From positions 3,400-67,399 of the IMG/VR virus record IMGVR_UViG_3300046007_009781: a DNA stretch of 64,000 nt; one strand, 5' to 3'. Numbering within the stretch: the first letter of the stretch is position 1; each line of letters opens with the position of its first letter. Shown here one piece after another: positions 29,301-62,716 of this stretch. Both the position numbers and the translations under genes were made by a program. The stretch is from a virus. The notes under the pieces were generated by a model. That model made no database searches. It had not been told where the DNA came from and was given only the letters and a program-made list of their open reading frames with translations.

Positions 29301-32300
29301 TTGATATACTTAAATTAGGTTCCCAATCTATTACAGCACGATCCTTAATATAAATTGTCCATAGATTATCCACCGAACTGTCTGATTGCACCAATACTTT
29401 ATAACCGATCGGTTGCAATAATATATCCACGAATCCCAAGCTTTCAAGATTGTCAACAATTAAATCATACTCGCCAGAGTTAACAGGAGGTATAGGCTCC
29501 CCGCCACTTAACCCCGAAATATCAAAATTTTGACTTATGATATTATCTGACAAAATAGTATTCACATATTGGAAAATATTTTTTGCCGATTCATTTCTAT
29601 TGATCACTAAACTCTGTCTTGGACGTATAGCAGTGCCATATCTTGTTTGTACAGGTAAAGTAGGATCTGGCACAGGGTTGCCAAATCTATCTACTCCGCT
29701 AACGCTGTCAACTAACTTATTATAAATCGAGGTAGGTATATCTGCAGATTTAGAACCTTTTTCCGATATTAATGCGTATTCATTATGTATGACATTACTG
29801 TTCAAAATTGTTGCATAATCTAAATGAAAAATAGTGTCATCACTTATAGTTTCATTTACCAGATTGAATATTGCTAAACTGTCATCTCTCAATGCTGCAT
29901 AATATTTTATGCCACTGGATTTGGGATCTGCAATGTAACTTGCAATAGAAGAAACCGGTAATCCTCTGTTGTTAGATGAACTTTTTGTCACTGTGGTTTT
30001 ATTTTTTACCCAAAAGTAATATTTTACTGTTGTAAAATTACTAGTAGGATCAACATAAGTCACAGTCACATATGCTTCATTGTTTGGATATTTAGGTATA
30101 CCGTTTCCGCCATTGGCTACATATTGATTAGGAGGATATAAACTTTCTACCCATTCATATACATCTATTACGCTGCCAGGAAATAATCTTCCCCAGTTAT
30201 TAGCTCTATACTCAATTGACCCCTGTTCATAGTCAATATATCTGACCGTACTTAAATCCCACCAAACTTGTCCAACTTGTTCATTTGACCAGAACAAAGT
30301 ATTGTTTTGACTTAAAGATGTCAATGATACATTATTATAAACTGCAGGATCATAATCTATTTTGTAATTGATTTCTTGCTCTGCCAAACCAAGAATTTTT
30401 CCTTTAGCAGGATCTATGTAATCTAAATTATAAGTAATTGTTTGATTTTTACTGCTGTAAATATAGCCTTTTAATAAACTGTCAATATCAACCTTAGGTT
30501 CTTGATTTCTGATTACATCCCAACCCAATAAACCTGCATTATTATCAAATTTGAAAACTCTACCAGTATTAAAGCCCTGACGTTTATTATGTTTACTACC
30601 AACAATTAATTTTGTGTTGGTTATGTCTATTGCACTACCGAACTTATCATTTGTTTGTAAACTAGATCCAATTACGGTAGGTGTTAACTGTTGTATAAAG
30701 GTATAAATGCCAGGATATTGAATAGATTGTCTATTATCATCTAAGTAAGAAAATATCCACACAGCACCACTATCTGATTTATTTTCTTTAAATAAGGTAC
30801 TTTCAGAATCAAATATAGTAATTAAATTTAACGATTTATCAAATGTTGTAGCTTCCAATGTTGCTGCACTGTCGCTGCCCACGGATAAAATATTACTGTT
30901 GGGGTTAATTTTTACTTGTTTACCAAAGTAATCGTACGATTTATTAGATGGATTATTAATTACCTCTACCTCAGTAAACACAGTTAGTCCCAAACTAGAC
31001 AATGCATTACCCTGACCTGGTAATACTTTCAATTTATCTGCAGCAATTACCGAGGAACTAGTTAATGACAAGTAACCATTAGTATTGGCTGCTACCACAC
31101 CTGGTATATTGTAATTGTTTATTGTGTTTACAATATCAGTTAGTGTAGTGCCAGAAAAGTTAATTAAAAAATTGTTTATTCTAATACTATCGCCGCTTGT
31201 TACACTTGGATTTTGTATAGTGCCTGATATATTTCCGTAAGCTTTTCCTTGGTTAATCAGTCTGTATACACTACCGTTAAACAAATTAACATTTGAATTA
31301 AATGGTGCACCAACAAATACACTGCAACTATTAGTGCAAATTTCTACGGAATATCCAAATTCTTGCTTACTTTCTGGTATTGTCGAACTTCTTCGCTCAA
31401 CTAGATTAAAAATATTGGTTTCAATTGAAACAATTTTTCCTATTCCAGGAGGTGATAAAAACTGCACCACAGAAGGTCCAAATGATACCCAATCCTGATT
31501 AATAATCTGCTCTGTATTATCAATGAATACTCTTGTGAACTCATTAATAGTAGATCTAATAGAAAAATTAATTTGATCTTCTGTTTGCACTAAAAAACTA
31601 TCAATAGATCTATCAAATACACTGATTTCACCGTTATTTGTATATGTAGTAGATTCTATTGTAAGATTAGATTTAGGGGATCCAATTACAATTTGATCTC
31701 CTGCCAAAGTGGTTGCCAGACTAAATCCAAATTTGCTTCCCGCATTTCCGGATAAAGTGGTGAAATATTTAAAACCTTTTTTCTGAGAAACGGTAATAGT
31801 GCCTACACTTGGTGGAGTATCAAATACAATTTCTGAGCCAGTTAAATCATAGTCTTTGTAAGGCACAAAAGTTTGAGCAGCAGATACTACTAAGATACTT
31901 TCTGGATCATCTGGTGTAAAATCTAACAGGTAATTAGAAGTTGTACCATCTGCTACAAAACTAGTATTTGCCGTTAATCGATTTCTATTATAAGCATAAA
32001 CATAAACATCATCAGTATCAGGTGCACTGATATAAAGCCAATAATCGTCTTCACTAAGTGCAACACTATGTCCAAACTTTCCTTGACTTGCAGTATTAGG
32101 TCTTAATATCTGCGACTCTGAAATACTGCCAAATTCATCCTTAGAGTATACAAAACAGTATCCAATATTTCCATTGCTATCTGGTGCTCCAGCAATTACA
32201 AACTGTTGTCCAGAGTCTACGCTTGCACCTAAACTGACTGTATCATTGGCAAAGCTAGTTAAAGTAAGATTTTCTACTAGATCATCTGCGTAATTAATTG

Positions 32301-35300
32301 CGTAATTGGTTATTGCTCCCACATTGCTATTATACCCGGGCATACCAGCAATAACAAATTTATTATCGTTTGTAATTTTTACAGCACTTCCAAATGCACT
32401 ATTATTGGCTAAAATAGATTTAGGTAACGCAACATCATATACCCAAGGATCAGACTTTTCAAATACTGCCCAATCGCGTGCAGTATTATATTGAGACACC
32501 CAAATTTTATCTTGATTCAACCATCCATTATTTGGTTTGACAGAATCTAAATCTATTTGCCTTTCAATTTTTAAGCTAACTAATTTGTGCAGAACCCCAT
32601 TTTCGGAAATTGAACTAAATCCGGTTAGCGACGAAGACACACCTACAGTAAACTGTGTTAATCCATTTACGGCAATAACTTTATAAAATCCATTAAATCT
32701 ATCTAAATTTGTCATCATCACTGTGTCGTTTAACGATAATCCGTGTGATGTATCTGTAGTAACTAAAATACGTTGATTTAGAGCGTTTGAAAGACTGATT
32801 ATTTTTGCAGTAGATTCGTTAACTCTAAAAACATTCCATGTTTGACTGTAATCTTTAGCTACCCATATAATAGATCCTGTTCCTATATTGTTAAGATTGA
32901 TATTCAAATTTTGAATATTATTAATATCGAAAATAGTATAGTCTACATCTTCAACATTAACATACCCTGCAGTTTGTATATCCCCTATATAATTACTGTC
33001 TATATTTCTATTCAACAAAAATGGACTAGACCAAGGAATAGTTGTGCTCTTATATAACCCATTTTGATCTGTAAACAATGAACTATATATTACTGAACCA
33101 TTTGAATTTACTTGTAAACTAGTTGGATTACTTAAAGTATAATTTTCATATAAAACAATGTCTACTGACTGATTAGTATCTAAACTACCGTAACTACCTA
33201 CTCTAAACGCCCAATCTTCGTTAATTGTTACTGTAGTAGGTTGATTTCCAAAGGTAACATTACCTAAAGCATTGATGGATTTGAGTGTTCCTTTTTCTTT
33301 GATAAATCCTTGATAAAACTTTACTTGACTAGAATCATTTAATCCCAAATCATTTAAATAATTTCTGTTCCTAAATCCAATTAGTCCCAATGAGTATTTG
33401 TCAAATTCACTTTCTAAATTAATCAAATCTGTATTATAGAAAGTTTCACCCACTTGAGCATTTTTAGCGAAGTTTTGTAATAATCCAGATTTTACTTTAT
33501 TTTTATCTACAGGAATCCAAGATTTAAAATTAAATGTAGTAGATCCTGCTAAATTAGATCCTGCTGTATAGTAGAAATTTTTATATTCTACTAGATCACC
33601 TCGAAGATAATCTTTGTTCATTTGCCAAGGATCAACTTTTGGTGGGCCGTATATAAATCCGTTAGGATTTAATGTACCATTCCATTCGCCTGTTTTATAA
33701 CCTACAATTTTTAACCTATACTGTCTTTGCCCTGATACTGGATCATATATAATATCATTGAATTCAGTGCGATTGTTAAACAATAAAATATGTTCGTATT
33801 GAATTACATTTAATGAAATAAACCCAATTAAATCCTTAGTGCTTTTCAAATTAAGCCACAAGTAACCATTTTCTCTGTTAATGGTGTAAGCGTCAGAGCC
33901 TATCATTTTGTAATTCTGATCAATTATTTTACTACCATTAACTTGATTAGTAATTTTATCTACTGTGGCTGTGTTGTTGAAAAAACTTAAGTAATTACTT
34001 GCAGGACTTAGTGTAATAACGCTGCCCGAAGACCAGCCTTGTTGAATCCAAAATAAAAATTCTTTTACACTCAGCGCCCAATTTTTAATCTCTCCGAGAG
34101 TTTCATCAAAAAATCCAAATCTAAATCCCTGCAACAACAAATATCTTTCATAGCCACTTATAATATTTGCTACTTGTTGAACTGTATTAATTTCAATACC
34201 ATAAGGAATGTCTAATTTAAAATTAGTAAATTCTGTGTAATAATCTGCTGCCCTGTCTAATACTTTGATAACATTTTTTTTACCAGTTGTAGCAGGGGGC
34301 ACGATAGTAAAAAATGGATTTTCTGCGTCGTACCCAGATAGCTTAAAACCATTTTCAGTTTTTTCAATTATCATTGCACTGTATCTAGCATTTAAAAACG
34401 GCACAGATTTGTGCAATGATAAATCAAAATCTTTGTCTGGAATAATAATATTTGTATTTGTACTAGAGGGACTATTTTGTTCTGCTAATATTTTTAAATA
34501 TTGTTTTCCGCTGAACCCTGCCATTCTGTAGGACAATTGTAAATTAAAATCTCTTACAAAATGTAAAAGCTGTGATTTATTTGCTGCACCTTGACTTATT
34601 AAATAATCCCCAATCCAATTAATATAACCTGTTGCTCGCAATAAAGTGCCAGACACTGTTTCCCCATTTAAGTCTACCGATGAAGGGGTAATTCTTTCAT
34701 TGGTACCCTGTATTAGATACTGATCTAGTTCGACATTATATCTATACTTGTTTGTGTTAATTCCATATGAAAAATATTTGGCAGGCTTAATCAGTGCCAT
34801 TGCTAATTGTAAAGCAAATGGATACTCACTGCTTTTTTTCCATGCAGTTTCAACAGGGCCCCATTGTCCTACTGTCCAACTTCTATCAAATGTATTTGCA
34901 TCAAAGTTATTAGTTAATATACCTAACGGTGGTAATAGAACACCGTTTTCATTTACTGGAATAAAATTTAAAAGATTGGGACGGGTAAATTTAATGTCTG
35001 TGCCTTGACGATCCCCTTGGGCAATATAACCATTTTGTAAATCTGTCCACAAAATTTTATTACCTGACGTGTAAGGAGCAGGGCCATAATAATCTTGCCA
35101 CCAGTCTGGTTCTTCACTGAACCCTAACATTTCCCATGGGGTTAAATGGGGTGTTTGACAATCATAATAGTATTGATAACAGGCTCTCCAAGATCCAGGG
35201 AGATTATCTCTATCAATTACGTCTAAACTACCAGAATAGTTATATGTAAACGGAGAATCATTTTGGTAGGTAGTGTTTTCTGTATAGTTAAAATTATTGA

Positions 35301-38300
35301 CCGCAGCCCATCTTAAATAAAATTTTCCCACCAACTGATTAAATTGTGTGTATGTAATCCCGGTATCTCTAAATTTTCCAGGGACACTTTCGTAAACATT
35401 TACTAAGTATTCGCTGTAAGAAGTTTTAATGTTATTGTATATTCTCTTTTCTAATTCTAATAAGATTTGATCTCTTATGTCTCCGAACGTGGGAGTTAAA
35501 CTACCGTCATGGCCTCTTATAAAACTAGTAGGAGTAGAATAAGTGTAATCTATTATAATATCAGGAGTAAATTTAGGATATAGGCCTAATTTAGTAGGAG
35601 TTTCGGGAATCCAATTTCCGTCAGTGTTTTGATATTCTACAATTGTTAAAACATCATCTATAGCAAGGTCTACAGATTCGTTTATAATTACACCAGGACC
35701 AGTTGTTGCAAATACATAATCACGACCAAATAACAACTGACTGCCATTCAGATAAACTAATATAGCTAAATTATTAAGTTCAGTTGGATTGTAAATAGAA
35801 CTAATTTCGTAGGTTCGTTGTAATGTATTAAACACAGAGTAAGTAATAGTATTTTTACTGTCCCCGTAAGGCACCATACCACTGTAATACCACGGAAAAG
35901 TTTTATCTTTTATAGTATTAATCTTTTTAATAATTACATCTACTGCACTAACTGGATCAGATAAATTGTAATCTCTAATAGATTCAGCTAAATTTAAAAA
36001 TTTGTTTTTGAATCTTGTGTATTCTTGAGATGCATAAAATAAACTGCTATAAAAATCGAATGTTTCATTACACAGAAACATCATTGCATAACTCAAAGGA
36101 GCACTTTGTTCTAAAATTGTTCCAGGTTGGTTTTCTACATACAAATCTCTTAGATTACTATTGCCGGGGTAATTGCCCACAAAGCTTAAACTATTTTGTG
36201 CCAACTCCCCTATATGATTACGCATCTCACCTAGGGTAATTGAATTAACTTTAGCGTTTTGTGCATTTAAATTGAGGTTAACAGGAGCTTGATAAAATGC
36301 TAAATCACTAATTTGATCAGAATATACTAAGACATCAACTCTACTACCTTTAGTCATCTTTCCTGGTTTAATCAATAACTGTAATTTATTACCAGGTATA
36401 TTAAACAGTTGATAAGAATTAACATCTAATTTTTTGAAATTTATATAAACTAAAAAATTTGGTCTTGTAGTTGGAAGTAAGGGCTTAATATCTAAAAAGA
36501 AATCATTATTAATGCCATCAAATGTAAATGCAAAATTTTGCATCTGACGCGATTCGCTGTTCGAATTGGTCCATGCATTAACATTAATAACACTAAGATC
36601 CTCTAAATTTTTATGTAAAAAACCTACATTAATATTTTTTCTATAATTTTTGTTATCTACTTTATATTCAAATATTTGATTATCGAAGTCATTGTAAAAT
36701 TCAATGTCCCCAATATTATTAAAATTTCTATAGGATAAACTAAATCCTAATACTGGGTCAACTGCCCCTGTGCCGGTTTTATAACTAAAAATCTTTGTGC
36801 CAACAAAATTAGATTCATTGTTAATAATAGGGTATTTTGTAGTATCACTTAAACTTATATCATCATCGTCGAACACGTCAAACAGTGGCGGTTGATTGAT
36901 TTCTGTTTTTTGTTGTGCAAATATCCAGTTGTTACCGTTATACCAATAAGTTTTTCCCTTATTATTCAATCCATTTAGTACACTGACAGAATAATTCTCA
37001 TCTACTATAGCATCATCTGCTTCTACTAGTTTTATTTTTTGACCAGTATCATCTATGTTTTCAAAATCAATGACATAAATTTTTCCTTTCGAAAGAGGAT
37101 CTTGGTCTAAACTAAAAATAACTCTCATACCTTCAATCAGTTTAACACCATCAATATACATTCCTTCATATTGACCTTGCACATTTAAAAATGGATTTGT
37201 AAATTGAGTGTCAAATAAATCAACTGGCTGTTTACTTCTTCTGCCAAAATTAATCAGTTGTAAATCTGCATCAAATTCAATGATTGGTCTTTTAGCTCTA
37301 GAACCTTCATTATAATCTTGTTGAATGTTAGTGTAATATGCAGTAGCATCTAATACCCCTTTATGAAACCAACGATTTCTTCTAGTCCAAGGATTTAAAT
37401 CTAAACTTGCTCTATTAATGACGATATAATCCGGAGTCGAAATAGATTCGTCAACGTCTAAAAAAGTGCTACCAAAATATCTCGGTCCAACTATGTATGG
37501 GTATGATTCAGTAATAAAATATGCATAAGTTCCATCTGGAAATTCTGGAGTAACACAATATCTGCCATTGTAGATATCTAAGTCTGTTACTGCAGAGGGG
37601 TCTATTAGAGTTTTGTGAACATAATCTTCAATGAATGAACCTGCTTCAAATCCAAACTGAATTTGTGTACCTTCTAAGTAGGTTACATTTCCATTTAATA
37701 AAACAGTAAAATCACCGCTGTAATCGTTTAGTCCAACTGCAGTTTTTAAAGCATTATTAATAATATACCTGTCAGGCACTGGCAAAGGCACACCATCAAC
37801 TGTAACACTGGTAATTTTCATTCCAGGATTTAATCCATTAGTAGATGACACACTGATTAGCGGACTTGAAAGAATATCTGTTGTGACTGTAACTGTTACA
37901 TTGGCAGGCCTATAAATAGAATCAACATTATCACTGATAATATAACCACTTGTTAGTCGTTTAACGCCGCTAGTAGAATCTAATGCAGTTCTATACCCAA
38001 AAGGACCATATATAGGGTATCCATCTAATGCTATACCTATTAATTTACTGTGCCCGTCAGTGTTATTGTATCCATCACTGAACCCACTGATATTTGCCCA
38101 TGCATTTGCAGTTATAAAGTCGCCATTAGTGTAAGCATATTCACCGAAATCAAAAACATTGCCTCCATAAGCGTCCCTGCCATTAATATTAACTTTATTA
38201 GTATCGTAATGCCATTTAGCACTGTCCGCTGACGGAATATACGCACCATTACTTACACCTTTAATAGGTATACCTGGTAATGTCATGCCGATCGTAGCAT

Positions 38301-39957
38301 TACTTAAACTAATATCTTCATGGTCGCCTGGTTGATTTTTTCCTACTCTGAACGGTAATGTGTAAGTAAGATTTTGTTCTACAATATATCTACTATTAAT
38401 ACTATTAGGAAAACTACCAACAGAAACATTAGGATATTGTGGGAAATCTGTTGAGGTTATTTTTAATTGATCTCTTGCAGAATTTAACGAAATTTTACTG
38501 TATTGCGTAAAATAATTTGCTGGTTCAAAGGTAGTCAAAACACCTGCGTATCCAACAATTAGATCATTTACTGCAATTAGTCTTATTCCTGTACCAACAC
38601 CTTCTACATAATATTCCTTATTACGATAAGATTCAGGTAAAACTTGTGCATTAAATTGTATTTTTAAACCGTTAGTAAATGTAACACCGTTTGGACTAAC
38701 ATAGTTAGTTTTTCCTAATATCTCGGACGTAATATCAATAAAACTATTTGTAGAATCTATAATCCTTATTACACCATATTGATTTTCATCTTCACTGTCT
38801 TGATAATATAAAGTTTCCAACGGGGCAGTAATGACTGGGATTCTTATTAAGAAATTATCAATTGATGTATACCATTCAGTGTTGCCATATTCTATACCTG
38901 ACAAAACGATGACCTTGTTGTTAACAGGTATAGCACCATAATAAGCTAAGTTAATAATAAAATCATTACCCGACGGAGTTAACACAATGTTCCAAATACC
39001 ATATCTTTGAGCTGCTGGTACAGTTACATTATTAGCAGTCCAATCTGCGGTGTTATTAGTATATTCGCCGAAAATTAAAAATTTTCCGTTAAGGTTTGAT
39101 AACTGGCCATCAATTCCATTATACAGATTTTTAATTTGAGATAATAATTGACCTTGTAGATTTGCGTAAGTTAATGTGCTAACTAAATCCACAGTTTGCA
39201 CCACTGGCATGTTTATATAAAAATCTTGTGCAGTGCTGATAGGCACATTAAAGTAAATTGTGCCAAACTCTGTTCCGTTATTATCTACTCCAAGTATTTG
39301 TCTTGTACTTAAATTGGTTAACTCACTAATGCCCGATAACCCCGGTTCTGTTTGAATATAAAACTTTTTGCCAGGTTGATTAATTACAAATTGATAGTTA
39401 CCGCCGCGAGCTAAAGTGATATCAGGATTAGGAGTAGTGCCATACCCGCTTAGATTATAAACTCTTAACGCAGAATCCGGATAAATGTAAAATGTTCGTT
39501 CAAGCTGAGCTTCACCTGCAAACACAGGAACCGGACTGGGCCCGTTAGGTAACCAATAATATTGGCCGAAATTAATTAGGGTGTCTGCATTGATTCTCGG
39601 ATTATAACTATAAAAGTCACTTCGGAATAAATTATCTTGGTTTGATACGTTAGCTCCAAAATAATTAATTTTTTCTAGTAATTCTTGATAGGTAACCGCA
39701 TATTCCAAATCACCGCTTATGGCATTTTTAACCACTACTGCTGGTTCAAGTTGATAGTCTGCTCTTAAATCCGTGGGTTCAGTAATGTATGTGGTTATGT
39801 TATTAAATCCGGGAGCAAATTTTCTGCCTACATAACCATTGATTGCTAATAGATTTGGTTCTGTTACTAATTGATCCAGAGTAGCATTTAGAAATTTCTT
39901 ATTGGTTTCAGTTTGGAATACTGACGGTAAAAAATTAACAGTTTTAGTATTGGCCAT
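26353..39957 (-). CDS. Giant (4534 aa) baseplate wedge/structural protein, positional equivalent of T4 gp7
   Basis: Follows gp6. N-terminal FLPSVFQT..FL, YINEVKPYRT, FG-GAP-like repeats, GxGY..P.V.I.G repeats, CBM-like and YHYH-like modules. Confidence 0.8.
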   Translation of the reverse strand: MANTKTVNFLPSVFQTETNKKFLNATLDQLVTEPNLLAINGYVGRKFAPGFNNITTYITEPTDLRADYQLEPAVVVKNAISGDLEYAVTYQELLEKINYFGANVSNQDNLFRSDFYSYNPRINADTLINFGQYYWLPNGPSPVPVFAGEAQLERTFYIYPDSALRVYNLSGYGTTPNPDITLARGGNYQFVINQPGKKFYIQTEPGLSGISELTNLSTRQILGVDNNGTEFGTIYFNVPISTAQDFYINMPVVQTVDLVSTLTYANLQGQLLSQIKNLYNGIDGQLSNLNGKFLIFGEYTNNTADWTANNVTVPAAQRYGIWNIVLTPSGNDFIINLAYYGAIPVNNKVIVLSGIEYGNTEWYTSIDNFLIRIPVITAPLETLYYQDSEDENQYGVIRIIDSTNSFIDITSEILGKTNYVSPNGVTFTNGLKIQFNAQVLPESYRNKEYYVEGVGTGIRLIAVNDLIVGYAGVLTTFEPANYFTQYSKISLNSARDQLKITSTDFPQYPNVSVGSFPNSINSRYIVEQNLTYTLPFRVGKNQPGDHEDISLSNATIGMTLPGIPIKGVSNGAYIPSADSAKWHYDTNKVNINGRDAYGGNVFDFGEYAYTNGDFITANAWANISGFSDGYNNTDGHSKLIGIALDGYPIYGPFGYRTALDSTSGVKRLTSGYIISDNVDSIYRPANVTVTVTTDILSSPLISVSSTNGLNPGMKITSVTVDGVPLPVPDRYIINNALKTAVGLNDYSGDFTVLLNGNVTYLEGTQIQFGFEAGSFIEDYVHKTLIDPSAVTDLDIYNGRYCVTPEFPDGTYAYFITESYPYIVGPRYFGSTFLDVDESISTPDYIVINRASLDLNPWTRRNRWFHKGVLDATAYYTNIQQDYNEGSRAKRPIIEFDADLQLINFGRRSKQPVDLFDTQFTNPFLNVQGQYEGMYIDGVKLIEGMRVIFSLDQDPLSKGKIYVIDFENIDDTGQKIKLVEADDAIVDENYSVSVLNGLNNKGKTYWYNGNNWIFAQQKTEINQPPLFDVFDDDDISLSDTTKYPIINNESNFVGTKIFSYKTGTGAVDPVLGFSLSYRNFNNIGDIEFYNDFDNQIFEYKVDNKNYRKNINVGFLHKNLEDLSVINVNAWTNSNSESRQMQNFAFTFDGINNDFFLDIKPLLPTTRPNFLVYINFKKLDVNSYQLFNIPGNKLQLLIKPGKMTKGSRVDVLVYSDQISDLAFYQAPVNLNLNAQNAKVNSITLGEMRNHIGELAQNSLSFVGNYPGNSNLRDLYVENQPGTILEQSAPLSYAMMFLCNETFDFYSSLFYASQEYTRFKNKFLNLAESIRDYNLSDPVSAVDVIIKKINTIKDKTFPWYYSGMVPYGDSKNTITYSVFNTLQRTYEISSIYNPTELNNLAILVYLNGSQLLFGRDYVFATTGPGVIINESVDLAIDDVLTIVEYQNTDGNWIPETPTKLGLYPKFTPDIIIDYTYSTPTSFIRGHDGSLTPTFGDIRDQILLELEKRIYNNIKTSYSEYLVNVYESVPGKFRDTGITYTQFNQLVGKFYLRWAAVNNFNYTENTTYQNDSPFTYNYSGSLDVIDRDNLPGSWRACYQYYYDCQTPHLTPWEMLGFSEEPDWWQDYYGPAPYTSGNKILWTDLQNGYIAQGDRQGTDIKFTRPNLLNFIPVNENGVLLPPLGILTNNFDANTFDRSWTVGQWGPVETAWKKSSEYPFALQLAMALIKPAKYFSYGINTNKYRYNVELDQYLIQGTNERITPSSVDLNGETVSGTLLRATGYINWIGDYLISQGAANKSQLLHFVRDFNLQLSYRMAGFSGKQYLKILAEQNSPSSTNTNIIIPDKDFDLSLHKSVPFLNARYSAMIIEKTENGFKLSGYDAENPFFTIVPPATTGKKNVIKVLDRAADYYTEFTNFKLDIPYGIEINTVQQVANIISGYERYLLLQGFRFGFFDETLGEIKNWALSVKEFLFWIQQGWSSGSVITLSPASNYLSFFNNTATVDKITNQVNGSKIIDQNYKMIGSDAYTINRENGYLWLNLKSTKDLIGFISLNVIQYEHILLFNNRTEFNDIIYDPVSGQRQYRLKIVGYKTGEWNGTLNPNGFIYGPPKVDPWQMNKDYLRGDLVEYKNFYYTAGSNLAGSTTFNFKSWIPVDKNKVKSGLLQNFAKNAQVGETFYNTDLINLESEFDKYSLGLIGFRNRNYLNDLGLNDSSQVKFYQGFIKEKGTLKSINALGNVTFGNQPTTVTINEDWAFRVGSYGSLDTNQSVDIVLYENYTLSNPTSLQVNSNGSVIYSSLFTDQNGLYKSTTIPWSSPFLLNRNIDSNYIGDIQTAGYVNVEDVDYTIFDINNIQNLNINLNNIGTGSIIWVAKDYSQTWNVFRVNESTAKIISLSNALNQRILVTTDTSHGLSLNDTVMMTNLDRFNGFYKVIAVNGLTQFTVGVSSSLTGFSSISENGVLHKLVSLKIERQIDLDSVKPNNGWLNQDKIWVSQYNTARDWAVFEKSDPWVYDVALPKSILANNSAFGSAVKITNDNKFVIAGMPGYNSNVGAITNYAINYADDLVENLTLTSFANDTVSLGASVDSGQQFVIAGAPDSNGNIGYCFVYSKDEFGSISESQILRPNTASQGKFGHSVALSEDDYWLYISAPDTDDVYVYAYNRNRLTANTSFVADGTTSNYLLDFTPDDPESILVVSAAQTFVPYKDYDLTGSEIVFDTPPSVGTITVSQKKGFKYFTTLSGNAGSKFGFSLATTLAGDQIVIGSPKSNLTIESTTYTNNGEISVFDRSIDSFLVQTEDQINFSIRSTINEFTRVFIDNTEQIINQDWVSFGPSVVQFLSPPGIGKIVSIETNIFNLVERRSSTIPESKQEFGYSVEICTNSCSVFVGAPFNSNVNLFNGSVYRLINQGKAYGNISGTIQNPSVTSGDSIRINNFLINFSGTTLTDIVNTINNYNIPGVVAANTNGYLSLTSSSVIAADKLKVLPGQGNALSSLGLTVFTEVEVINNPSNKSYDYFGKQVKINPNSNILSVGSDSAATLEATTFDKSLNLITIFDSESTLFKENKSDSGAVWIFSYLDDNRQSIQYPGIYTFIQQLTPTVIGSSLQTNDKFGSAIDITNTKLIVGSKHNKRQGFNTGRVFKFDNNAGLLGWDVIRNQEPKVDIDSLLKGYIYSSKNQTITYNLDYIDPAKGKILGLAEQEINYKIDYDPAVYNNVSLTSLSQNNTLFWSNEQVGQVWWDLSTVRYIDYEQGSIEYRANNWGRLFPGSVIDVYEWVESLYPPNQYVANGGNGIPKYPNNEAYVTVTYVDPTSNFTTVKYYFWVKNKTTVTKSSSNNRGLPVSSIASYIADPKSSGIKYYAALRDDSLAIFNLVNETISDDTIFHLDYATILNSNVIHNEYALISEKGSKSADIPTSIYNKLVDSVSGVDRFGNPVPDPTLPVQTRYGTAIRPRQSLVINRNESAKNIFQYVNTILSDNIISQNFDISGLSGGEPIPPVNSGEYDLIVDNLESLGFVDILLQPIGYKVLVQSDSSVDNLWTIYIKDRAVIDWEPNLSISKGTYVYYSQRAWIAIEDFVTGSEFNTENFVTYRPKNVWNLIRVQSYNINEYWQYRDWYASNYDISIPPNYIINNAAELSNLRLKSGDYVKILDNGQGNWFIIKVFPNQVETVAIQNGTIEFTDNLWDLANNNMGFGADDFDTGRFDQNPSLETREIIDIIKNNIFINRLDPNFVELFFVTINYILTEQKTIDYAFKTSFITAIQKIKGLVQPEIYNKENQNFYEQYINEVKPYRTTLREYVVDYLGYDNWNGYVGDFDVPPYYDPVLKLSRSPSGEFIEDANALQLPQYRDWLFNRSYYIASVEIVDGGSGYTIPPVVTITGSANGNNAVAKAYITDGVVSRIDLLYQGSDYLSTPTVIIDGGNGQGATARANLKNDLVRSAKMVLLYDRYTYGTSVKPWEPNTAYNQGQIVNYNGVAYIVNSTNYISDATFNLRNLTIYTVDKFLNANDRIQAYYEPELGQPAKVFSLLQSGIDYPGVQVQGPLYTDSGGFDTSGFDTVIFDPFQLDSDGTYVISDAILDAKITSSFTDTSLGIRPEDIIVDGGPYVYDSFRNWTANTAYQKGDLVSYNNQVYYTIQDYTSNSSFSTTDLALYDVGPYASHAPEELIPGRVYDTLEMTVYTIAADPTSNVFISWQANSGIAVDYIQIANVGLGYNPAEVFVTITGGGAALDAQAQILLDSNGSAVSFEVSEPGLGYITTPNVIVVGTNLEPIIATAVMKLTNAPSSENPYPLMTYKIFKDMNDNYTYLRVDQSASTTLSANLGLTDSSIYVSDASKLQEPASAGGEPGVVFINGERIVYYFKDNTTNTLSQLRRGTNGTGAVPHYTGNIVYDGSQNQVVIQSENYIWYPGINGNGTINVSAFSNTIVGTGTYFASELSIGSNVFLNDGRYVGRVSRIRSNTNVAVINNVGFYANAASYQISSNVTVISTSGNTANLNADTAYIRSNLWYTPNLSTATNGGGLFNSNTIQAEFLKQGLLNSY

Positions 39958-53098: not shown

Positions 53099-54870
53099 TG
53101 ATTACAATAAAGAATTTATCAGTAAAAAATTTTATGAGTGTAGGTAATGCTACACAGGCCATCAATTTTAATCGAAATGATTTAACTCTTGTGCTGGGCG
53201 AAAACTTAGACTTGGGAGGAGATGATAGTGGTGCACGTAATGGCACAGGTAAAACCACTATTATAAATGCTTTAAGTTATGCATTTTATGGACAAGCATT
53301 AACAAACATTAAAAAAGATAATTTAATCAATAAAACTAACGGAAAACACATGTTAGTTACTATTGATTTTGAAGTAGAAAATCAAAAATATAGAATAGAG
53401 CGTGGAAGAAAACCCAACGTTCTTAAATTTTTTATAAATGATAGTGAACTTGAAACCAAAGATGATAACAGTCAGGGCGACAGCCGAGAAACTCAACACG
53501 AAATAGAAAGACTGTTACAAATGAGTCACGATATGTTCAAACATGTCGTTGCACTTAATACGTACACTGAACCATTTTTAAATCTCAAAGCAAATGATCA
53601 AAGATTAATCATTGAGCAATTGTTAGGTATTACTTTACTAAGTGAAAAATCTGAAGCATTAAAAGAACAAATTAAAATCACTAAAGATTCTATTCAACAA
53701 GAAGAATTCAGAATCAAAGCAGTTCAAGATGCCAATAAACGAATACAAGATCAAATCGACAGTTTGACTAGAAGACAAACTTTATGGCAACAAAAAAAGA
53801 ACAAAGATGTTGCAGATTTACAGGCAGCATACAATCAACTGGCCGAATTGGATATCGAAGCCGAATTATCTGCTCATCAAAAATTATCCGAACACAAAAC
53901 GAAATCACAAAAAATTAATGAACTTAAAAAGTTAATTAAACAATGTGAAACTGATGAGATCAAAGAATTAAAACTAATAGAACAACTTAAAAAAGAAATT
54001 GATAGTTTAAAAAATCATACTTGCCATACTTGTGGTCAAGGATTTCACGATGCTCGTCAGGAAAACTTGTTAAAAGAAAAACAACAATTACTTCAAGAAA
54101 CTGCACTACAGGCATTAGCAACTAATACTCAATATATAGAAAACACAGGTGCATTGGCTGCTCTTGGAGAATTAGAATCGCAGCCTGTGACATTTTACAC
54201 CAGCGAAGCTGATGCCTTCGAGCATCGTGTAAGCATGGCTACAGTATTAACTCAACTTACAGCTAAACAAGTAGAAGAAGATCCTTACAGTGATCAAATC
54301 AAGGACATGCAGTCACATGCGTTAGTTGATGTTACGTATGATACGATAAATGAACTAACTAATCTAAAGGACCACCAAGAATTTTTGCTAAAATTACTAA
54401 CTAACAAAGACAGTTTTATTAGAAAAAAAATAATTGATCAAAACTTGAATCACCTAAATGCTAGACTAAGTTATTATCTAGATAAAATTGGATTGCCACA
54501 TACTGTTAAGTTTATGAATGATTTGACTGTCAGCATAGAAGAACTAGGTCGAGAGTTAGATTTCGATAATCTAAGCCGGGGAGAAAGAAACAGACTTATA
54601 TTAAGTTTGAGCTGGGCGTTTAGAGATGTATGGGAAAGTCTGTATAATAAAATTAATTTACTGTTTATAGATGAGTTAGTAGATAGTGGAATGGATAGCT
54701 CGGGTGTCGAAAACAGTCTTGCAATTTTGAAAAAAATGAGTAGGGAAGGTAACAGAAGTGTTTGGTTAGTAAGTCATAAAGACGAATTAGCCGGCAGAGT
54801 CAATAATATTTTAACAGTAATTAAAGAGAATGGATTCACAAGTTATAACACTGATGTAGATGTGGTGTAA
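53098..54870 (+). CDS. gp46: Recombination ATPase subunit, gp46 (Rad50/SbcC-like)
   Basis: NFMSVGN, NGTGKT, coiled coil with CHTC zinc hook, LSRGE, FIDE, SH. Confidence 0.95.
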   Translation: MITIKNLSVKNFMSVGNATQAINFNRNDLTLVLGENLDLGGDDSGARNGTGKTTIINALSYAFYGQALTNIKKDNLINKTNGKHMLVTIDFEVENQKYRIERGRKPNVLKFFINDSELETKDDNSQGDSRETQHEIERLLQMSHDMFKHVVALNTYTEPFLNLKANDQRLIIEQLLGITLLSEKSEALKEQIKITKDSIQQEEFRIKAVQDANKRIQDQIDSLTRRQTLWQQKKNKDVADLQAAYNQLAELDIEAELSAHQKLSEHKTKSQKINELKKLIKQCETDEIKELKLIEQLKKEIDSLKNHTCHTCGQGFHDARQENLLKEKQQLLQETALQALATNTQYIENTGALAALGELESQPVTFYTSEADAFEHRVSMATVLTQLTAKQVEEDPYSDQIKDMQSHALVDVTYDTINELTNLKDHQEFLLKLLTNKDSFIRKKIIDQNLNHLNARLSYYLDKIGLPHTVKFMNDLTVSIEELGRELDFDNLSRGERNRLILSLSWAFRDVWESLYNKINLLFIDELVDSGMDSSGVENSLAILKKMSREGNRSVWLVSHKDELAGRVNNILTVIKENGFTSYNTDVDVV

Positions 54871-56578
54871 AATGAAATTTGGTTTAGACTACATATCAGA
54901 ATATCAAATTGAACTTACGACATACTGTAATGCTGCTTGTCCTCAATGTCCTAGAAATATTAATGGAGGGAAGATAAATCCTCACTTGAAATTAGAACAT
55001 CTTTCAAGAAACATTATAGATAAAACATTTCCTGCTTTATTATGTAATAAATTGTCACAGATTTTCTTTTGCGGAAGTTACGGAGATCCCGTAATGCATC
55101 CAGATTTTTTGGATATATTATGGGACTTTAGACAGAAAGCACCAAAGCTTTGGTTATATACACATACAAATGGCAGTGTACAAAATAAAGATTATTGGAA
55201 AGAAGTTGCGTATATTTTAAATGGATTCGGTCAAGTCGATTTCAATATTGACGGGCTAGCAGATACTAATTCTGTGTATAGAAGAAATACAGATTTTAAT
55301 AAAATCATCGACAATGCCACGGCTTTTATAAGTGCAGGTGGCCGTGCAGTTTGGAATTTTATTGTTTTTGAACATAATCAGCATCAACTTGAAGAAGCAA
55401 GAGCTTTAAGCAAACAACTAGGTTTTACCAATTTTACTTTTCGAAACACGGGAAGATTTTTAAATCATAAAACTATGGACACATTCACAGAATGGCCCGT
55501 ACTAGATCGTCAAGGTACAAAAATTTATAGTATAAAACCAACAACATCCATGTACAGAAACAAAAGTATTGAAAGATTGCCTGAGTTAAAAAAAGAATTT
55601 TCGGACATGAAAGAATATTTTAGGACCGTAGAAATAAATTGCGATAGCTTGCATAATAAAAGAGTGGCTATAAATGCTCACGGTTTAGTCTTGCCGTGTA
55701 ATATGTTAAATCATAATCTATACGACGCTAGATTTTATGATGATACAATTATGCCCTGTAGTAACGAATTAAGTACGGTTAATGGTTCAAATCAAGTAAA
55801 AGATTTTATCAATAAACATGACCCTAGTAGCTTAAACATATATAATAACTCACTTGAAAATGTATTCAAAAGTGCATTTTGGACTCAGTTAACAGAAAGC
55901 TGGCAGAAAAATACATTTCCAGAAAGACTTTTTGAATGTGCAATGACTTGTGGGAAACAGTTCACTAAAGTTTGGGATCAAACAAAAATGACTACAAAAT
56001 ATTTGGTAACAGGTGGCAACCGAGGTTTAGGTTTAGCTTTGGTAAAACATACCAACGGTAAAAGCATTAGTAGGTCAGATAATTTTGATATTACAAAAGA
56101 TGTTGAAAAAATTGTATCTTTAAGCTTAGAATATGATGTCTTTATAAACAATGCATTTGATGGTCCTCCTCACGAAGATTGGGCAAACTTCGCACAAGTA
56201 AATTTATATATGGCTCTATATGATGCATGGTCTAAACATAATAAAAAAGGGTGGATAGTTAATATAGGCAGTGTAGGAGAAAAACATATTGTTTCACCCG
56301 AACCAAGATTTGAGACTTATCGAATAAGTAAAGCTGCATTAGCCCATGCTAGCAAACAAGGCACCCAAGCATTTAAAATGAATAAGGTTCCATTTAAAAC
56401 CACTTTGATTACATTGGACAGATTAGACACAGAATTAACTAGAAGTAGACCGAACTATACGAATAATGCAATTAGTCTGCTGGACATTGCAAAATTCCTA
56501 GATTATGGTGCAAGTATTCATTCTAATACTGTAATAGAAGAAATAGTATTTTATTGCAATTTCGACTTTAAGGCATAA
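54860..56578 (+). CDS. Radical SAM/SPASM-twitch protein fused to a C-terminal short-chain dehydrogenase domain; ATG 54872 is the likely start
   Basis: CNAACPQC, GSYGDP, HTNG, IDG, C-terminal Cys (LPC, CAMTC), then TGGNRGLG, INNA, NIGS, YRISK. Confidence 0.85.
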   Translation: MWCKMKFGLDYISEYQIELTTYCNAACPQCPRNINGGKINPHLKLEHLSRNIIDKTFPALLCNKLSQIFFCGSYGDPVMHPDFLDILWDFRQKAPKLWLYTHTNGSVQNKDYWKEVAYILNGFGQVDFNIDGLADTNSVYRRNTDFNKIIDNATAFISAGGRAVWNFIVFEHNQHQLEEARALSKQLGFTNFTFRNTGRFLNHKTMDTFTEWPVLDRQGTKIYSIKPTTSMYRNKSIERLPELKKEFSDMKEYFRTVEINCDSLHNKRVAINAHGLVLPCNMLNHNLYDARFYDDTIMPCSNELSTVNGSNQVKDFINKHDPSSLNIYNNSLENVFKSAFWTQLTESWQKNTFPERLFECAMTCGKQFTKVWDQTKMTTKYLVTGGNRGLGLALVKHTNGKSISRSDNFDITKDVEKIVSLSLEYDVFINNAFDGPPHEDWANFAQVNLYMALYDAWSKHNKKGWIVNIGSVGEKHIVSPEPRFETYRISKAALAHASKQGTQAFKMNKVPFKTTLITLDRLDTELTRSRPNYTNNAISLLDIAKFLDYGASIHSNTVIEEIVFYCNFDFKA

Positions 56579-56608: not shown

Positions 56609-57037
56609 ATGACTTGGCTGTTCGAAAACTCTGCAATTGAAACCTTACCGGAAGATTGTGTAGGATTCGTATACCAAATTACTAATCTCATAACAAATCG
56701 AAAATACATAGGCAAAAAACTCTCAAAATTTAGCAAAACTCAAATTAAAACAGTAAAATTAAAAAACGGAAATAAACGCAAAAAGAAAATTCGCTCAAAA
56801 ATCGATAGTGATTGGAGAGATTATTATGGTAGTAGTCCCGAACTTCTTAAAGATATAGAAACTTTAGGCAAAGAAAATTTTAAACGAGAAATACTTTTTT
56901 ACTGTAAATCTAAGGCAGAATGCAGTTATATCGAAGCAAGAGAACAATTCTCTAGACGAGTGTTAGAATCTTCAGATTATTATAACGGCATTATTAACTG
57001 TCGCATTCATGGCTCCCACATTTTAAACAAACTTTAA
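56609..57037 (+). CDS. Small stand-alone GIY-YIG nuclease-family protein
   Basis: GFVYQITN..RKYIGKK, YYGSS, FKREIL, E..Q, YYN; no C-terminal DNA-binding extension. Confidence 0.8.
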   Translation: MTWLFENSAIETLPEDCVGFVYQITNLITNRKYIGKKLSKFSKTQIKTVKLKNGNKRKKKIRSKIDSDWRDYYGSSPELLKDIETLGKENFKREILFYCKSKAECSYIEAREQFSRRVLESSDYYNGIINCRIHGSHILNKL

Positions 57038-57459
57038 GGCAAAATCAGGCAGTAAAGGCTAGCACAGGCCAATTTCGTGTGCTCTATACCTGGACTTTTG
57101 ATCACAGGGATGGAAGTCTTGCCGCGCCAGCAAGCACTCAATCACTATCCTTTACAGGACGAAGATCGCAAAATGCCGCGGTTTGATTGTTTGAACAGGT
57201 TAATTTAAGGCAAAAAGACGTTGCAGTGATGTGACACGTATTGTGAGTAGGCTAGCATCTACACTCAATACCGCCGTTGTTATAAAGACTGGGATGGAGG
57301 TACCGGACAACCGCCTCTGTGAAATACCCTAATGCTAGTGGCTGTGCTACTCGGATGAAGCTAACTTTGCCCTGTACGGGCAAAGAGTGACTGATTAATC
57401 TGGATGAAATTACGTCGCTTGAGCGTATGCGATAAGCGACAGATGTGCGCAGCACATCT
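57038..57459 (+). ncRNA. Candidate large structured non-coding RNA (family not recognised; strand inferred from the upstream gene)
   Basis: The only long gap in a gene-dense window, visibly more GC-rich. Long-range stem 57060-67/57342-49, stem 57139-44/57184-89, hairpins 57118-34, 57148-59, 57365-85, 57414-40, 57441-59. Confidence 0.6.
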
Positions 57460-57677
57460 TAAAAGAATGGCATACGTGTTTCGTTTGTTACTTCGATGTT
57501 TTCTTCTATTATTTTTTCGATTAGTTGTCGATCATGAAACCCCAATTCAAACATTTCATTCAATGAAATACCTCCCCGCATGTACCAACAAAGTTTGAAT
57601 ATGTGTTTTTTTAAGGCTTTTGAATCCCGTTCCATTGAATCTAAATAATCAACTACTTCGTCATAATTTAGATTCAA
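57459..57677 (-). CDS. gp51-like baseplate/tail assembly protein; possibly the -1 frameshift extension of the upstream gene
   Basis: LCWYMRGGISLNEMFEL..DRQLI; lies in the -1 frame after T TTT TTC at 57689-57695. Confidence 0.65.
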   Translation of the reverse strand: MNLNYDEVVDYLDSMERDSKALKKHIFKLCWYMRGGISLNEMFELGFHDRQLIEKIIEENIEVTNETRMPFF

Positions 57678-57682
57678 AAGCC

Positions 57683-58531
57683 TTAGACGAAAAAATTTGA
57701 CATTTCAAAAACTAATGGACTTGTAAATTCTTTCCCGCAATCTTTATGCTCACACGTTAAAGGGATATTTTTTAAGGGACTTTGCTCCGCAATACTTTCT
57801 AATTTGTTTCTAATAGATTCCCAAATTTTCTTGTTGCAATTTCTTAGAAATTCATCTATAAATTCTTTGTTTTGTACTAAGGTGCCGTCATTGGTTTTTA
57901 TAGCAGTTATACTTGAGCTTACAGTTTGGATAGTTAATTCAAGCATCTGCTTTAAGATAGCATCAACTTGATGAAGTTTTTCCATCTCGGGTATCTTTTG
58001 ATCATCGATTACTTTTAAGAGCTTTTGACTTTCAAATTTTTGAATATTAACATAATTCAACTGTTTGAAATTCTGTGGTTGTAGGAATAATTCGAGATCT
58101 TCAATGATTAATGATTCATCGAATTTTGGATCATATAGTTGATCTTGCAAAATTTGTAAATTTAAAGTGTTTTCGTTTTTTCTCTTACAGTGCGGGCATA
58201 CAGTGACAAAATCCATGGCATTACCGTATGTGGCTCTACGTATACCAATCAATAAATAATCCAAATCTACTACTGGAACAGCCCACGCATTTTTAATATT
58301 TGGCACACAACTATGAATTAAATCAACTGTGGTTTGTCCGCTTAATAATGCATCCGGACTCTGCATGGATAATTCATCCTTTGCAGTCATTGAATAGACA
58401 GGTAACTCTTTAGTAATAGGCATATCAATCGAACCTTGAACATACCATTGTCCTTTACTGGGAAGTTTAATATAAAGTTGAGGTTGTCTAAAATATTTTA
58501 CAAGAGGATTAGAATTATTGCTTTGACTCAT
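57683..58531 (-). CDS. gp26: Baseplate hub assembly protein/chaperone, gp26-like
   Basis: YIKLPSKG, MTAKDEL, DLDYLLIGIRRATYG, CPHC, second Cys pair, C-terminal NFF. Confidence 0.75.
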   Translation of the reverse strand: MSQSNNSNPLVKYFRQPQLYIKLPSKGQWYVQGSIDMPITKELPVYSMTAKDELSMQSPDALLSGQTTVDLIHSCVPNIKNAWAVPVVDLDYLLIGIRRATYGNAMDFVTVCPHCKRKNENTLNLQILQDQLYDPKFDESLIIEDLELFLQPQNFKQLNYVNIQKFESQKLLKVIDDQKIPEMEKLHQVDAILKQMLELTIQTVSSSITAIKTNDGTLVQNKEFIDEFLRNCNKKIWESIRNKLESIAEQSPLKNIPLTCEHKDCGKEFTSPLVFEMSNFFV

Positions 58532-62362: not shown

Positions 62363-62366
62363 AAGA

Positions 62367-62374
62367 TATAAATA
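62367..62374 (+). promoter_or_regulatory. T4-type late promoter TATAAATA
   Basis: Exact consensus, 5 nt upstream of ATG 62380. Confidence 0.7.
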
Positions 62375-62379
62375 ACTTT

Positions 62380-62607
62380 ATGATTGTTAATGAATTATTC
62401 AGTCCTACACCTGCTGCTTTCAGATCCGAGAAGCAGGACAACACATCAATGACATTGAAAAAAACAAGAACAACTAGTTTAACTTTGTCACAATTGAATA
62501 GATTACGTATTATGAATGATGCTAGAAAGTTAGAGCATGAAAAGAAATTAGAAACGGTATCAACACAATATAAACCTCCAGCAGCACCTGCAGGTCCTGG
62601 TTTATAA
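62380..62607 (+). CDS. Small head-assembly-region protein
   Basis: 75 aa between the portal and core genes, with its own late promoter. Confidence 0.75.
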   Translation: MIVNELFSPTPAAFRSEKQDNTSMTLKKTRTTSLTLSQLNRLRIMNDARKLEHEKKLETVSTQYKPPAAPAGPGL

Positions 62608-62629
62608 TAAAATTTATTAAAAATCGTTC

Positions 62630-62660
62630 AAAAAATGCCCTTAAACAGGGCATTTTTTTT
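62630..62660 (+). terminator. Intrinsic terminator, possibly bidirectional
   Basis: A-tract, stem ATGCCCT, loop TAAAC, stem AGGGCAT, T-tract; followed by a TTTAAATA late box at 62667-62674. Confidence 0.8.
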
Positions 62661-62716
62661 ATACTGTTTAAATAACTATACAGAATTCATAAACATATTT
62701 TTTAAAGGAAACAAAT

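Follow-up and report, generated by a model that had tools for sequence, protein, structure and literature searches.

A conserved, doubly pseudoknotted non-coding RNA with twin seven-nucleotide boxes behind a GIY-YIG nuclease gene of uncultured freshwater T4-like phages

Polynucleobacter-1 (Rfam RF01718), the closest described relative of the element reported here, is a motif catalogued by Weinberg et al. (2010, Genome Biol 11:R31, PMC2864571), whose row for it reads probably RNA, probably cis-regulatory and 'Burkholderiales, fresh water/estuary'; a full-text search for its name returned no paper beyond that one. At a further remove stand the ornate RNAs GOLLD, ROOL and OLE (Kretsch et al. 2025, PMC12286853), found in bacteria and phages and described there as large, highly conserved, pseudoknotted, phage-carried RNAs of unknown biochemical function. 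IscB and TnpB, with their omega RNA, provide the model of a structured RNA encoded beside a compact nuclease gene. Here we analyse a 64,000-nucleotide (nt) window of a 67.4-kb IMG/VR viral contig (IMGVR_UViG_3300046007_009781, rated 19% complete), in which the gene for a small GIY-YIG nuclease (56609–57037) is followed by a gene-free stretch (57038–57459), both on the + strand. An earlier note, made from the letters alone, had described the stretch as a structured non-coding element and the pair as a candidate nuclease–RNA system.

The stretch is a conserved, pseudoknotted non-coding RNA, a real RNA gene of about 422 nt whose ends we place from conservation. Its 5' domain (57057–57192) matches the whole RF01718 model (positions 1–141 of 141) at 115.8 bits against a gathering score of 37, on the + strand only, and this is the sole Rfam family in the entire window. 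For the remaining ~270 nt (57193–57460), a permissive scan of 56900–57700 at E ≤ 10 gave nothing credible in Rfam 15. The catalogued motif is thus the first third of the molecule, which continues with two pseudoknots, 44 further invariant alignment columns and the twin boxes described below; the whole is an undescribed larger form of the orphan motif, about three times longer. The habitat agrees with the catalogue, as the stretch is found in lake metagenomes and one bacterial copy occurs in a Limnohabitans metagenome-assembled genome (MAG). The catalogue row's tag of probable cis-regulation fits less well: the next gene here is convergent, and in relatives the gene that follows has its own late-promoter-like box, so the RNA is no 5' leader. 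With the ornate RNAs this molecule shares strong conservation, pseudoknots and a phage carrier, but it is smaller and matches none of them in sequence or structure.

The structured element of the earlier note is confirmed by the RF01718 match together with the comparison with relatives, and its failure to recognize tRNA, tmRNA, RNase P or group I core motifs is borne out: ARAGORN called no tRNA or tmRNA gene in the window, and Rfam gave no tRNA, tmRNA or RNase P match. A group I intron was rejected, the element lying between complete genes with no Intron_gpI match at E ≤ 10 (56900–57700). The note had also reasoned that an Rfam family unrelated to the nuclease would speak against its proposal; such a match exists for the 5' third only, and that family is itself an orphan of unknown function. 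Between 57038 and 57458 there is no open reading frame (ORF) of at least 80 amino acids (aa), and none spans the stretch under genetic code 4 or with TAG read as glutamine. It is the longest such gap but not, as the note had it, the only long one, a second of ~355 nt lying at 62363–62716; this second-longest gap contains TATAAATA at 62367–62374 and has no Rfam match. The G+C content of the RNA stretch is 0.455–0.465 (46%), against 0.27–0.38 in its flanks, where it averages about 31%. The RNA starts at the nuclease stop codon, and its 3' end is set by a last hairpin that adjoins the stop of a convergent 72-aa ORF.

Homologues were collected in two rounds. A 14-mer from the motif, placing no constraint on the boxes, retrieved 119 viral stretches; nhmmer matched the query in 42 of 120 loci, most along nearly all of its 433 nt and so beyond the Rfam part, with alignments in relatives covering query positions 5–433. 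Thirty-three distinct sequences form the alignment used for the structure counts (A1), in which 78 columns are invariant, 44 of them beyond the Rfam part. A second retrieval, using a pattern of the 3' domain that forces R at two box positions, raised the set to 155 nhmmer hits in viral contigs, 104 of them full length and 95 distinct. Two complete phage genomes of 350 kb (G152 and G153) carry the RNA once each. Within a large clade of uncultured lake phages with genomes of 350 kb, few sequences are as conserved as this RNA.

Comparison of these relatives supports an elaborate fold. An RNAalifold consensus has 70 pairs, 34 of them with compensatory changes. We also wrote out a 98-pair structure with two pseudoknots from the helices of the window and counted it on A1, with slid partners and 500 shuffles as controls. 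In this structure 88.8% of cells are paired (36.0–42.3% with slid partners), 64 pairs have changes on both sides (23–29) and the covariation score is 0.357 (0.056–0.079); none of the 500 shuffles reaches the observed values. In the RF01718 part, helices 1–7 are 87.5–99.4% paired and 21 of 36 pairs have changed on both sides, showing that the model helices are kept by compensatory change. G–U pairs are invariant or nearly so (columns 264/412, GU in 33/33; 328/340, UG in 33/33; 150/173, GU in 31/33), and because of the invariant ones the RNA is assigned to the + strand.

Two pseudoknots distinguish the part beyond the Rfam model. The first joins the loop 57251–57258 to 57332–57339 (93.6% paired, five pairs changed on both sides); this loop belongs to an imperfect hairpin at 57239–57270 in which all 12 pairs have changed on both sides, with only 77.9% of cells paired. 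The second joins GTTGT (57276–57280) to ACAAC (57307–57311; 96.4% paired, three pairs changed on both sides) and crosses both the GGAGGT/GCCTCT helix at 57296–57318 and an outer helix (57291–57293/57327–57329), helices 12 and 14 being 98–100% paired. Further 3', a hairpin of CTTTGCCC and GGGCAAAG (57365–57385; 96.5% paired, three pairs changed on both sides) separates the two boxes, and two terminal hairpins occupy 57414–57459, the last of which (57441–57459) is 80.9% paired with six pairs changed on both sides. Some counts go against the proposed structure: pairing falls to 48.5% in the outer two pairs of the GGAGGT/GCCTCT helix and to 75–78% in the variable hairpins. The penultimate hairpin (57414–57440, helices 17–18) is 14–30% paired, in a poorly aligned, gappy part of A1.

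Every pairing named in the earlier note is present at the positions it gave, and covariation across the 33 homologues supports CTTGC/GCAAG, CAATCA/TGATTG, TCCT/AGGA, ATCGC/GCGGT, the imperfect stem, GAGG/CCTC, the inter-box hairpin and the last hairpin. Its outermost pairing, TAGCACAG (57060–57067) with CTGTGCTA (57342–57349), fails, being 60% paired and no better than shuffles; GCACA at 57062–57066 instead pairs locally with 57078–57082 (99.4% paired, 5/5 pairs co-varying).

The RNA also contains a pair of seven-nucleotide words, unpaired in the RNAalifold consensus fold, that are kept identical to each other as the word changes. In the window both read GGATGAA, box 1 at 57353–57359 after ACTC and box 2 at 57402–57408 after ATCT, both on the + strand. 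The two boxes are identical in 94 of the 95 distinct homologues, the sole exception being L048, while the word itself varies among AGATAAT, GGATAAT, GGATGAT, GGATGAA, AGATGAT and AGATGAA. The same holds in the first, unconstrained retrieval, where 31 of 32 distinct sequences have identical boxes (a loose regular expression scored 29 as identical, and two mis-anchored cases are identical in the 95-sequence comparison). With the box columns left out of the maximum-likelihood tree, parsimony counts 17/18, 10/10 and 7/7 changes at positions 1, 5 and 7 (box 1/box 2), counts that tree error may inflate; about 31 joint word changes can be reconstructed, with one exception. Normalized mutual information between box 2 and box 1 positions is 0.93–1.0, the next best RNA column reaching 0.29–0.56. 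The Limnohabitans copy (n = 1) has another word, ATCGAAA, again twice and after the same ACTC and ATCT prefixes.

It is unusual for an RNA to keep two unpaired words the same as their sequence drifts, and the identity rule points to a mechanism of pairing or strand transfer. We know of no counterpart to it in GOLLD, ROOL or OLE. Known short motifs do not explain the word: a CsrA site, a C/D box, an anticodon or T-loop mimic, a stop codon and a hammerhead core were each considered and rejected, as the A-variants or the bacterial word misfit.

We postulate, at roughly even odds, that the locus is a stand-alone gene for an RNA of about 422 nt with two pseudoknots that probably acts in trans through its twin boxes, the nuclease being a neighbour only. 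The RNA sits at the 3' end of a putative recombination operon (gp47-like, gp46-like and GIY-YIG genes, the first two labelled by position) of an uncultured giant freshwater T4-like phage. Since it starts at the nuclease stop codon and no promoter or terminator was seen between the two, transcription would reach it by read-through from the nuclease gene; scans for promoters and terminators yielded no more sites than in shuffled sequence, and no conserved promoter-like hexamer precedes the RNA in 56 relatives. A rigid knotted scaffold would then display two copies of one short word, and a second nucleic acid would carry copies of one complementary sequence to which both boxes would pair. A more specific form of this idea, which we consider improbable as it stands, takes the boxes as two copies of one short guide, with the scaffold holding two copies of the complementary sequence side by side. 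The targets could be two DNA or RNA molecules or two arms of one, the cutting, joining or strand transfer would fall to small phage or host enzymes, and each change of target would be followed by the same change of word in both boxes. If true, giant phages and bacterial islands would harbour an RNA-directed nucleic-acid transaction of a new kind.

Several observations weigh against the preferred reading of a trans-acting, stand-alone RNA. Only six words, all of the form RGATRAW, occur in the phages, so the box is not freely programmable. No Watson–Crick 7-mer complement of a locus's own word lies within the RNA in any of the 95 sequences, no third RNA column co-varies with the boxes, and no partner emerged from the mutual information of box positions 1, 5 and 7 with the codons of the gp46-like, gp47-like, 72-aa, baseplate and 572-aa genes (position 1 never exceeds 0.6, and values for positions 5 and 7 are higher only in sets of 29–33 sequences). 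Nor did the 5' region of the nuclease gene supply one, the own 7-mer occurring in 0 of 87 and the 6-mer in 2 of 87, against 4 of 435 for control words; for the 5-mer the counts are 23/87 and 57/435. In the two complete genomes the complement ATTATCC shows no excess, with 29 and 45 sites against 61 and 31 for a control word. Positions 1–4 of box 1 could pair with the ATCT preceding box 2 (99.2% of cells), although three of these four pairs never vary, which gives the pairing little weight either way, and the bacterial word misfits. Single-sequence folding is no better than chance (z = −0.98, with 17 of 100 shuffles folding as well), and neither strand does better than shuffles; the structure draws its support from comparison with relatives. 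As for transcripts, the 24 sequencing runs that hold the stretch are all DNA runs from lake or freshwater metagenomes, with no RNA run among them. Finally, at phage RNA loci with enough sequence a nuclease gene always lies within ~2 kb upstream, and the RNA may depend one-way on the nuclease.

Wider searches for a partner of the boxes gave little. Complements of the own word occur at 75 sites in 859 kb of 5–15-kb loci, and their only cluster, 12 sites in the 450–800-nt range, falls mostly in coding genes of single clades, seven of the sites in one homologous gene. An inverted arrangement of complement plus word was not found for any locus's own word, and the complement followed by RRRT occurs only as the boxes' own antisense and at six scattered sites. 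Two ATTATCC sites lying close together in G153 belong to a tandem duplication of 18 nt within an ORF and lack a counterpart in G152. Between the boxes and the nuclease the best normalized mutual information was 0.21/0.30/0.49 for amino acids and 0.17/0.30/0.36 for nucleotides.

The partnership foreseen in the earlier note, in which the RNA is a cofactor, regulator, inhibitor or guide of the GIY-YIG protein and the two form one functional unit, draws on their adjacency. A GIY-YIG orthologue lies directly upstream in 90 of the 95 distinct RNA loci, with the RNA starting at the nuclease stop codon; another ORF intervenes at three full-length loci (and at a fourth, L025, that ends at a contig edge), and of the remaining two one has no nuclease gene in the 532 nt available and one allows no judgement. 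A subfamily with another 5' domain (see below) also follows the nuclease gene, and the protein has a conserved basic stretch and is conserved on a par with core genes (mean identity 72% over 74 orthologues). However, all RNA-bearing phage loci share one gene order, and because they belong to a single syntenic clade their adjacency is no independent evidence. The regions downstream of orthologues, which the note had proposed to compare, show the same: among the 80 best of 592 nuclease relatives in viral contigs, 75 were assessable (64–82% identical), and the RNA is present at 51 of these but at 24 there is none within 3 kb downstream (Rfam on 20 of the 24 gave no match). Beyond these contigs, 384 deposited phage records, mostly cyanophages, encode the nuclease at <60% identity, a blastn search of 50,697 deposited phage records for the RNA found none, and Methylophilales phage Melnitz, the closest phage in culture, encodes the nuclease (48.9% identity) but gives no match to RF01718. 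The bacterial copy, in turn, has no GIY-YIG gene in the 8 kb around it. No residue or codon of the protein co-varies with the boxes. The variable guide-like segment that the note had suggested looking for is also missing from A1 and from the 95-sequence set: their variable parts are co-varying stems, insertions and the two internal 7-nt boxes, which are the sole variable unpaired elements and take six words. A functional partnership is therefore rather unlikely. Aquatic T4-like phages conserve the nuclease gene with or without the RNA, which it does not need, and we infer that it is a conserved syntenic neighbour, neither box reader nor RNA-guided enzyme. An RNA-guided nuclease of the omega-RNA type in particular was rejected: unlike IscB and TnpB, the enzyme is a GIY-YIG and not a RuvC/HNH nuclease and has no RuvC domain, neither end of the scaffold has a variable guide segment (~16 nt or more), the nuclease is found without the RNA (at 24 of 75 orthologue loci) and the RNA without the nuclease, and transposon ends are absent. 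To read the locus as an RNA-guided GIY-YIG nuclease is attractive but unsupported, and the present analysis corrects it.

The remaining explanations place the function of the stretch in cis or in the DNA. As a 3' untranslated structure it might stabilize, terminate or insulate the gp47/gp46/GIY-YIG transcript before the convergent baseplate genes, in keeping with its position at the operon's 3' end, with terminal hairpins adjoining a convergent ORF and no promoter of its own in sight. We think this quite unlikely, since 78 invariant columns and two pseudoknots far exceed what a stabilizer or terminator needs, the terminal hairpin lacks a T-run and no terminator-like site was called at the RNA 3' end, the RNA persists behind another ORF and occurs in a bacterium in another context, and the twin-box rule would be left unexplained. 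In another reading the RNA would cut and rejoin itself at the boxes, freeing a segment of ~49 nt, or a polymerase copying the RNA or its gene would jump from box to box, as template jumping reportedly occurs on the DRT2 non-coding RNA and as take-off and landing codons are matched in T4 gene 60. A transferred strand could re-anneal only if the 7-mer, otherwise free to change, were the same in both places; the boxes stand 49–59 nt apart around a stable hairpin, and the many invariant unpaired nucleotides would suit a catalytic core. Such strand transfer or self-processing nonetheless stands at long odds: Rfam gave no ribozyme family match at E ≤ 10, no reverse transcriptase was noticed in the loci (no systematic search was made), the box spacing is not a multiple of 3, which makes a repeat-encoded ORF unlikely, no single-box relative without the inter-box segment occurs among the 155 nhmmer hits, and no contig joint from box to box appears in four lake metagenome runs. 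Contigs of these runs cover the whole stretch with no differences, and such joints as occur in them represent relatives whose variable hairpins have been replaced. Site-specific recombinases need identical 6–8-base-pair overlap sequences that are otherwise free in sequence, and with a nuclease gene next door the boxes might be the crossover cores, in direct repeat, of a recombination site, or the nuclease might act on the stretch as an origin or packaging site, as also suggested in the earlier note. A DNA-level element is highly improbable, however, given that the structure is strand-specific, the invariant G–U pairs being C–A on the other strand, that inspection found no dyad symmetry around the boxes, that no recombinase gene lies nearby, and that no deleted form occurs in the four runs, a weak test on contigs only, to which rare forms are invisible.

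The RNA is modular, as some relatives combine its 3' twin-box domain with another 5' domain. At 28 untruncated loci (26 distinct) nhmmer matches this domain only, with ~200 nt between it and the nuclease gene; of eight such loci scanned with Rfam at E ≤ 0.01, two have RF01718 and six do not. Twin boxes are present in 25 of the 26 distinct sequences, a set fetched with the box-constraining pattern. Because the twin-box domain occurs without an RF01718 match, we take the 3' domain to be the shared core.

Only one of 26 bacterial genome-contig pattern matches, that in the Limnohabitans MAG, is this RNA; it matches RF01718 at 93.4 bits, with a recognizable but diverged 3' core, and among 151 genomes of the MAG's family RF01718 was found in one, that MAG itself, so that the bacterial context rests on a single copy. 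In the four lake metagenome runs, summed contig depth peaks several-fold over 57127–57163 and 57275–57311, the most conserved RNA blocks, where many partly matching contigs align, which suggests that many related phage strains with the RNA live in the same lakes.

Downstream of the RNA, 53 of 87 relatives have a + strand ORF of 100–719 aa starting −40 to +80 nt from the padded RNA 3' end (for example L065:3005-3619:+, L018:8710-9636:- and L163:3335-4480:+); no gene of this kind occurs in the window. Forty of the 53 share the N-terminus M-[KR]-[IV]-x-[ED]-[IL]-[IL]-x-E, the remainder of the protein being hypervariable, and ten examples gave no PHROG match and no Pfam match above cut-off. A T4-late-promoter-like NATAAATA box precedes these ORFs (TATAAATA in 19/53, [TC]ATAAATA in 26/53), and because the gene has this box of its own the RNA is not its leader. 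The I/L-x-E at residues 7–9 is similar to the site cut by the T4 prohead protease and to the propeptide that targets T4 internal proteins to the capsid (PMC9026906, PMC3012670), and by this analogy the downstream proteins may be injected internal proteins.

The nuclease itself, of 142 aa, is of the SegE type and consists of a catalytic domain only. Its sole Pfam match is PF19835 SegE_GIY-YIG (E = 6.5e-33, residues 3–129 on profile positions 1–123 of 123), end to end, which bears out the earlier observation that it lacks a NUMOD or HTH tail. A basic stretch, KTVKLKNGNKRKKKIRSK, is present as that observation had it, most of its positions reaching 80% conservation or more in 88 orthologues, but it is not an insertion, since it is part of the continuous family match and conserved in orthologues. 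Across the 88 orthologues 43 of 142 residues are at least 98% conserved, including GFVY, Y.GKK, R93, E109/E112 and N126; the GIY and YIG motifs and the conserved Arg, Glu and Asn of the superfamily are all there. These residues are predicted from sequence to be of the catalytic type, with roles that we presume from I-TevI. The T4 free-standing Seg-type GIY-YIG homing endonucleases are the nearest likeness, from which this protein differs in having no DNA-binding tail and in being a fixed conserved gene instead of a sporadic mobile one, found at one place in hundreds of aquatic T4-like phages (592 viral-contig relatives and the 384 deposited records). In many cyanophage and rhizobiophage records (for example GU071099.1, MH512890.1 and KR052482.1) the homologue, or the feature under the match, is annotated 'NAD synthetase', which looks like a propagated mis-annotation. 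At 19 of the 24 RNA-less orthologue loci (L267, L283, L292, L329 and 15 more) the nuclease stop overlaps the start of an ORF of 248–403 aa; six of these loci gave one Metallophos (phosphoesterase) match above cut-off, the rest being sub-threshold Pfam matches to membrane-protein families.

The neighbourhood is of T4 type. Upstream lie a 338-aa ORF (gp47-like), a 590-aa SbcC/Rad50-like ORF (gp46-like) and, before the 142-aa nuclease ORF, a 572-aa ORF (54860–56578, +) in which a radical-SAM domain is combined with a part resembling short-chain dehydrogenases. Most relatives have a counterpart of residues ~12–186 of this ORF only, at times in two copies, while L164 matches well beyond; the spot between the gp46-like and nuclease genes is variable among relatives. 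Past the RNA the convergent genes are the 72-aa ORF (57459–57677, −) and then an ORF of the T4_baseplate family. Elsewhere in the window a single 4534-aa ORF occupies 26353–39957 (−) and is followed by one of 1185 aa.

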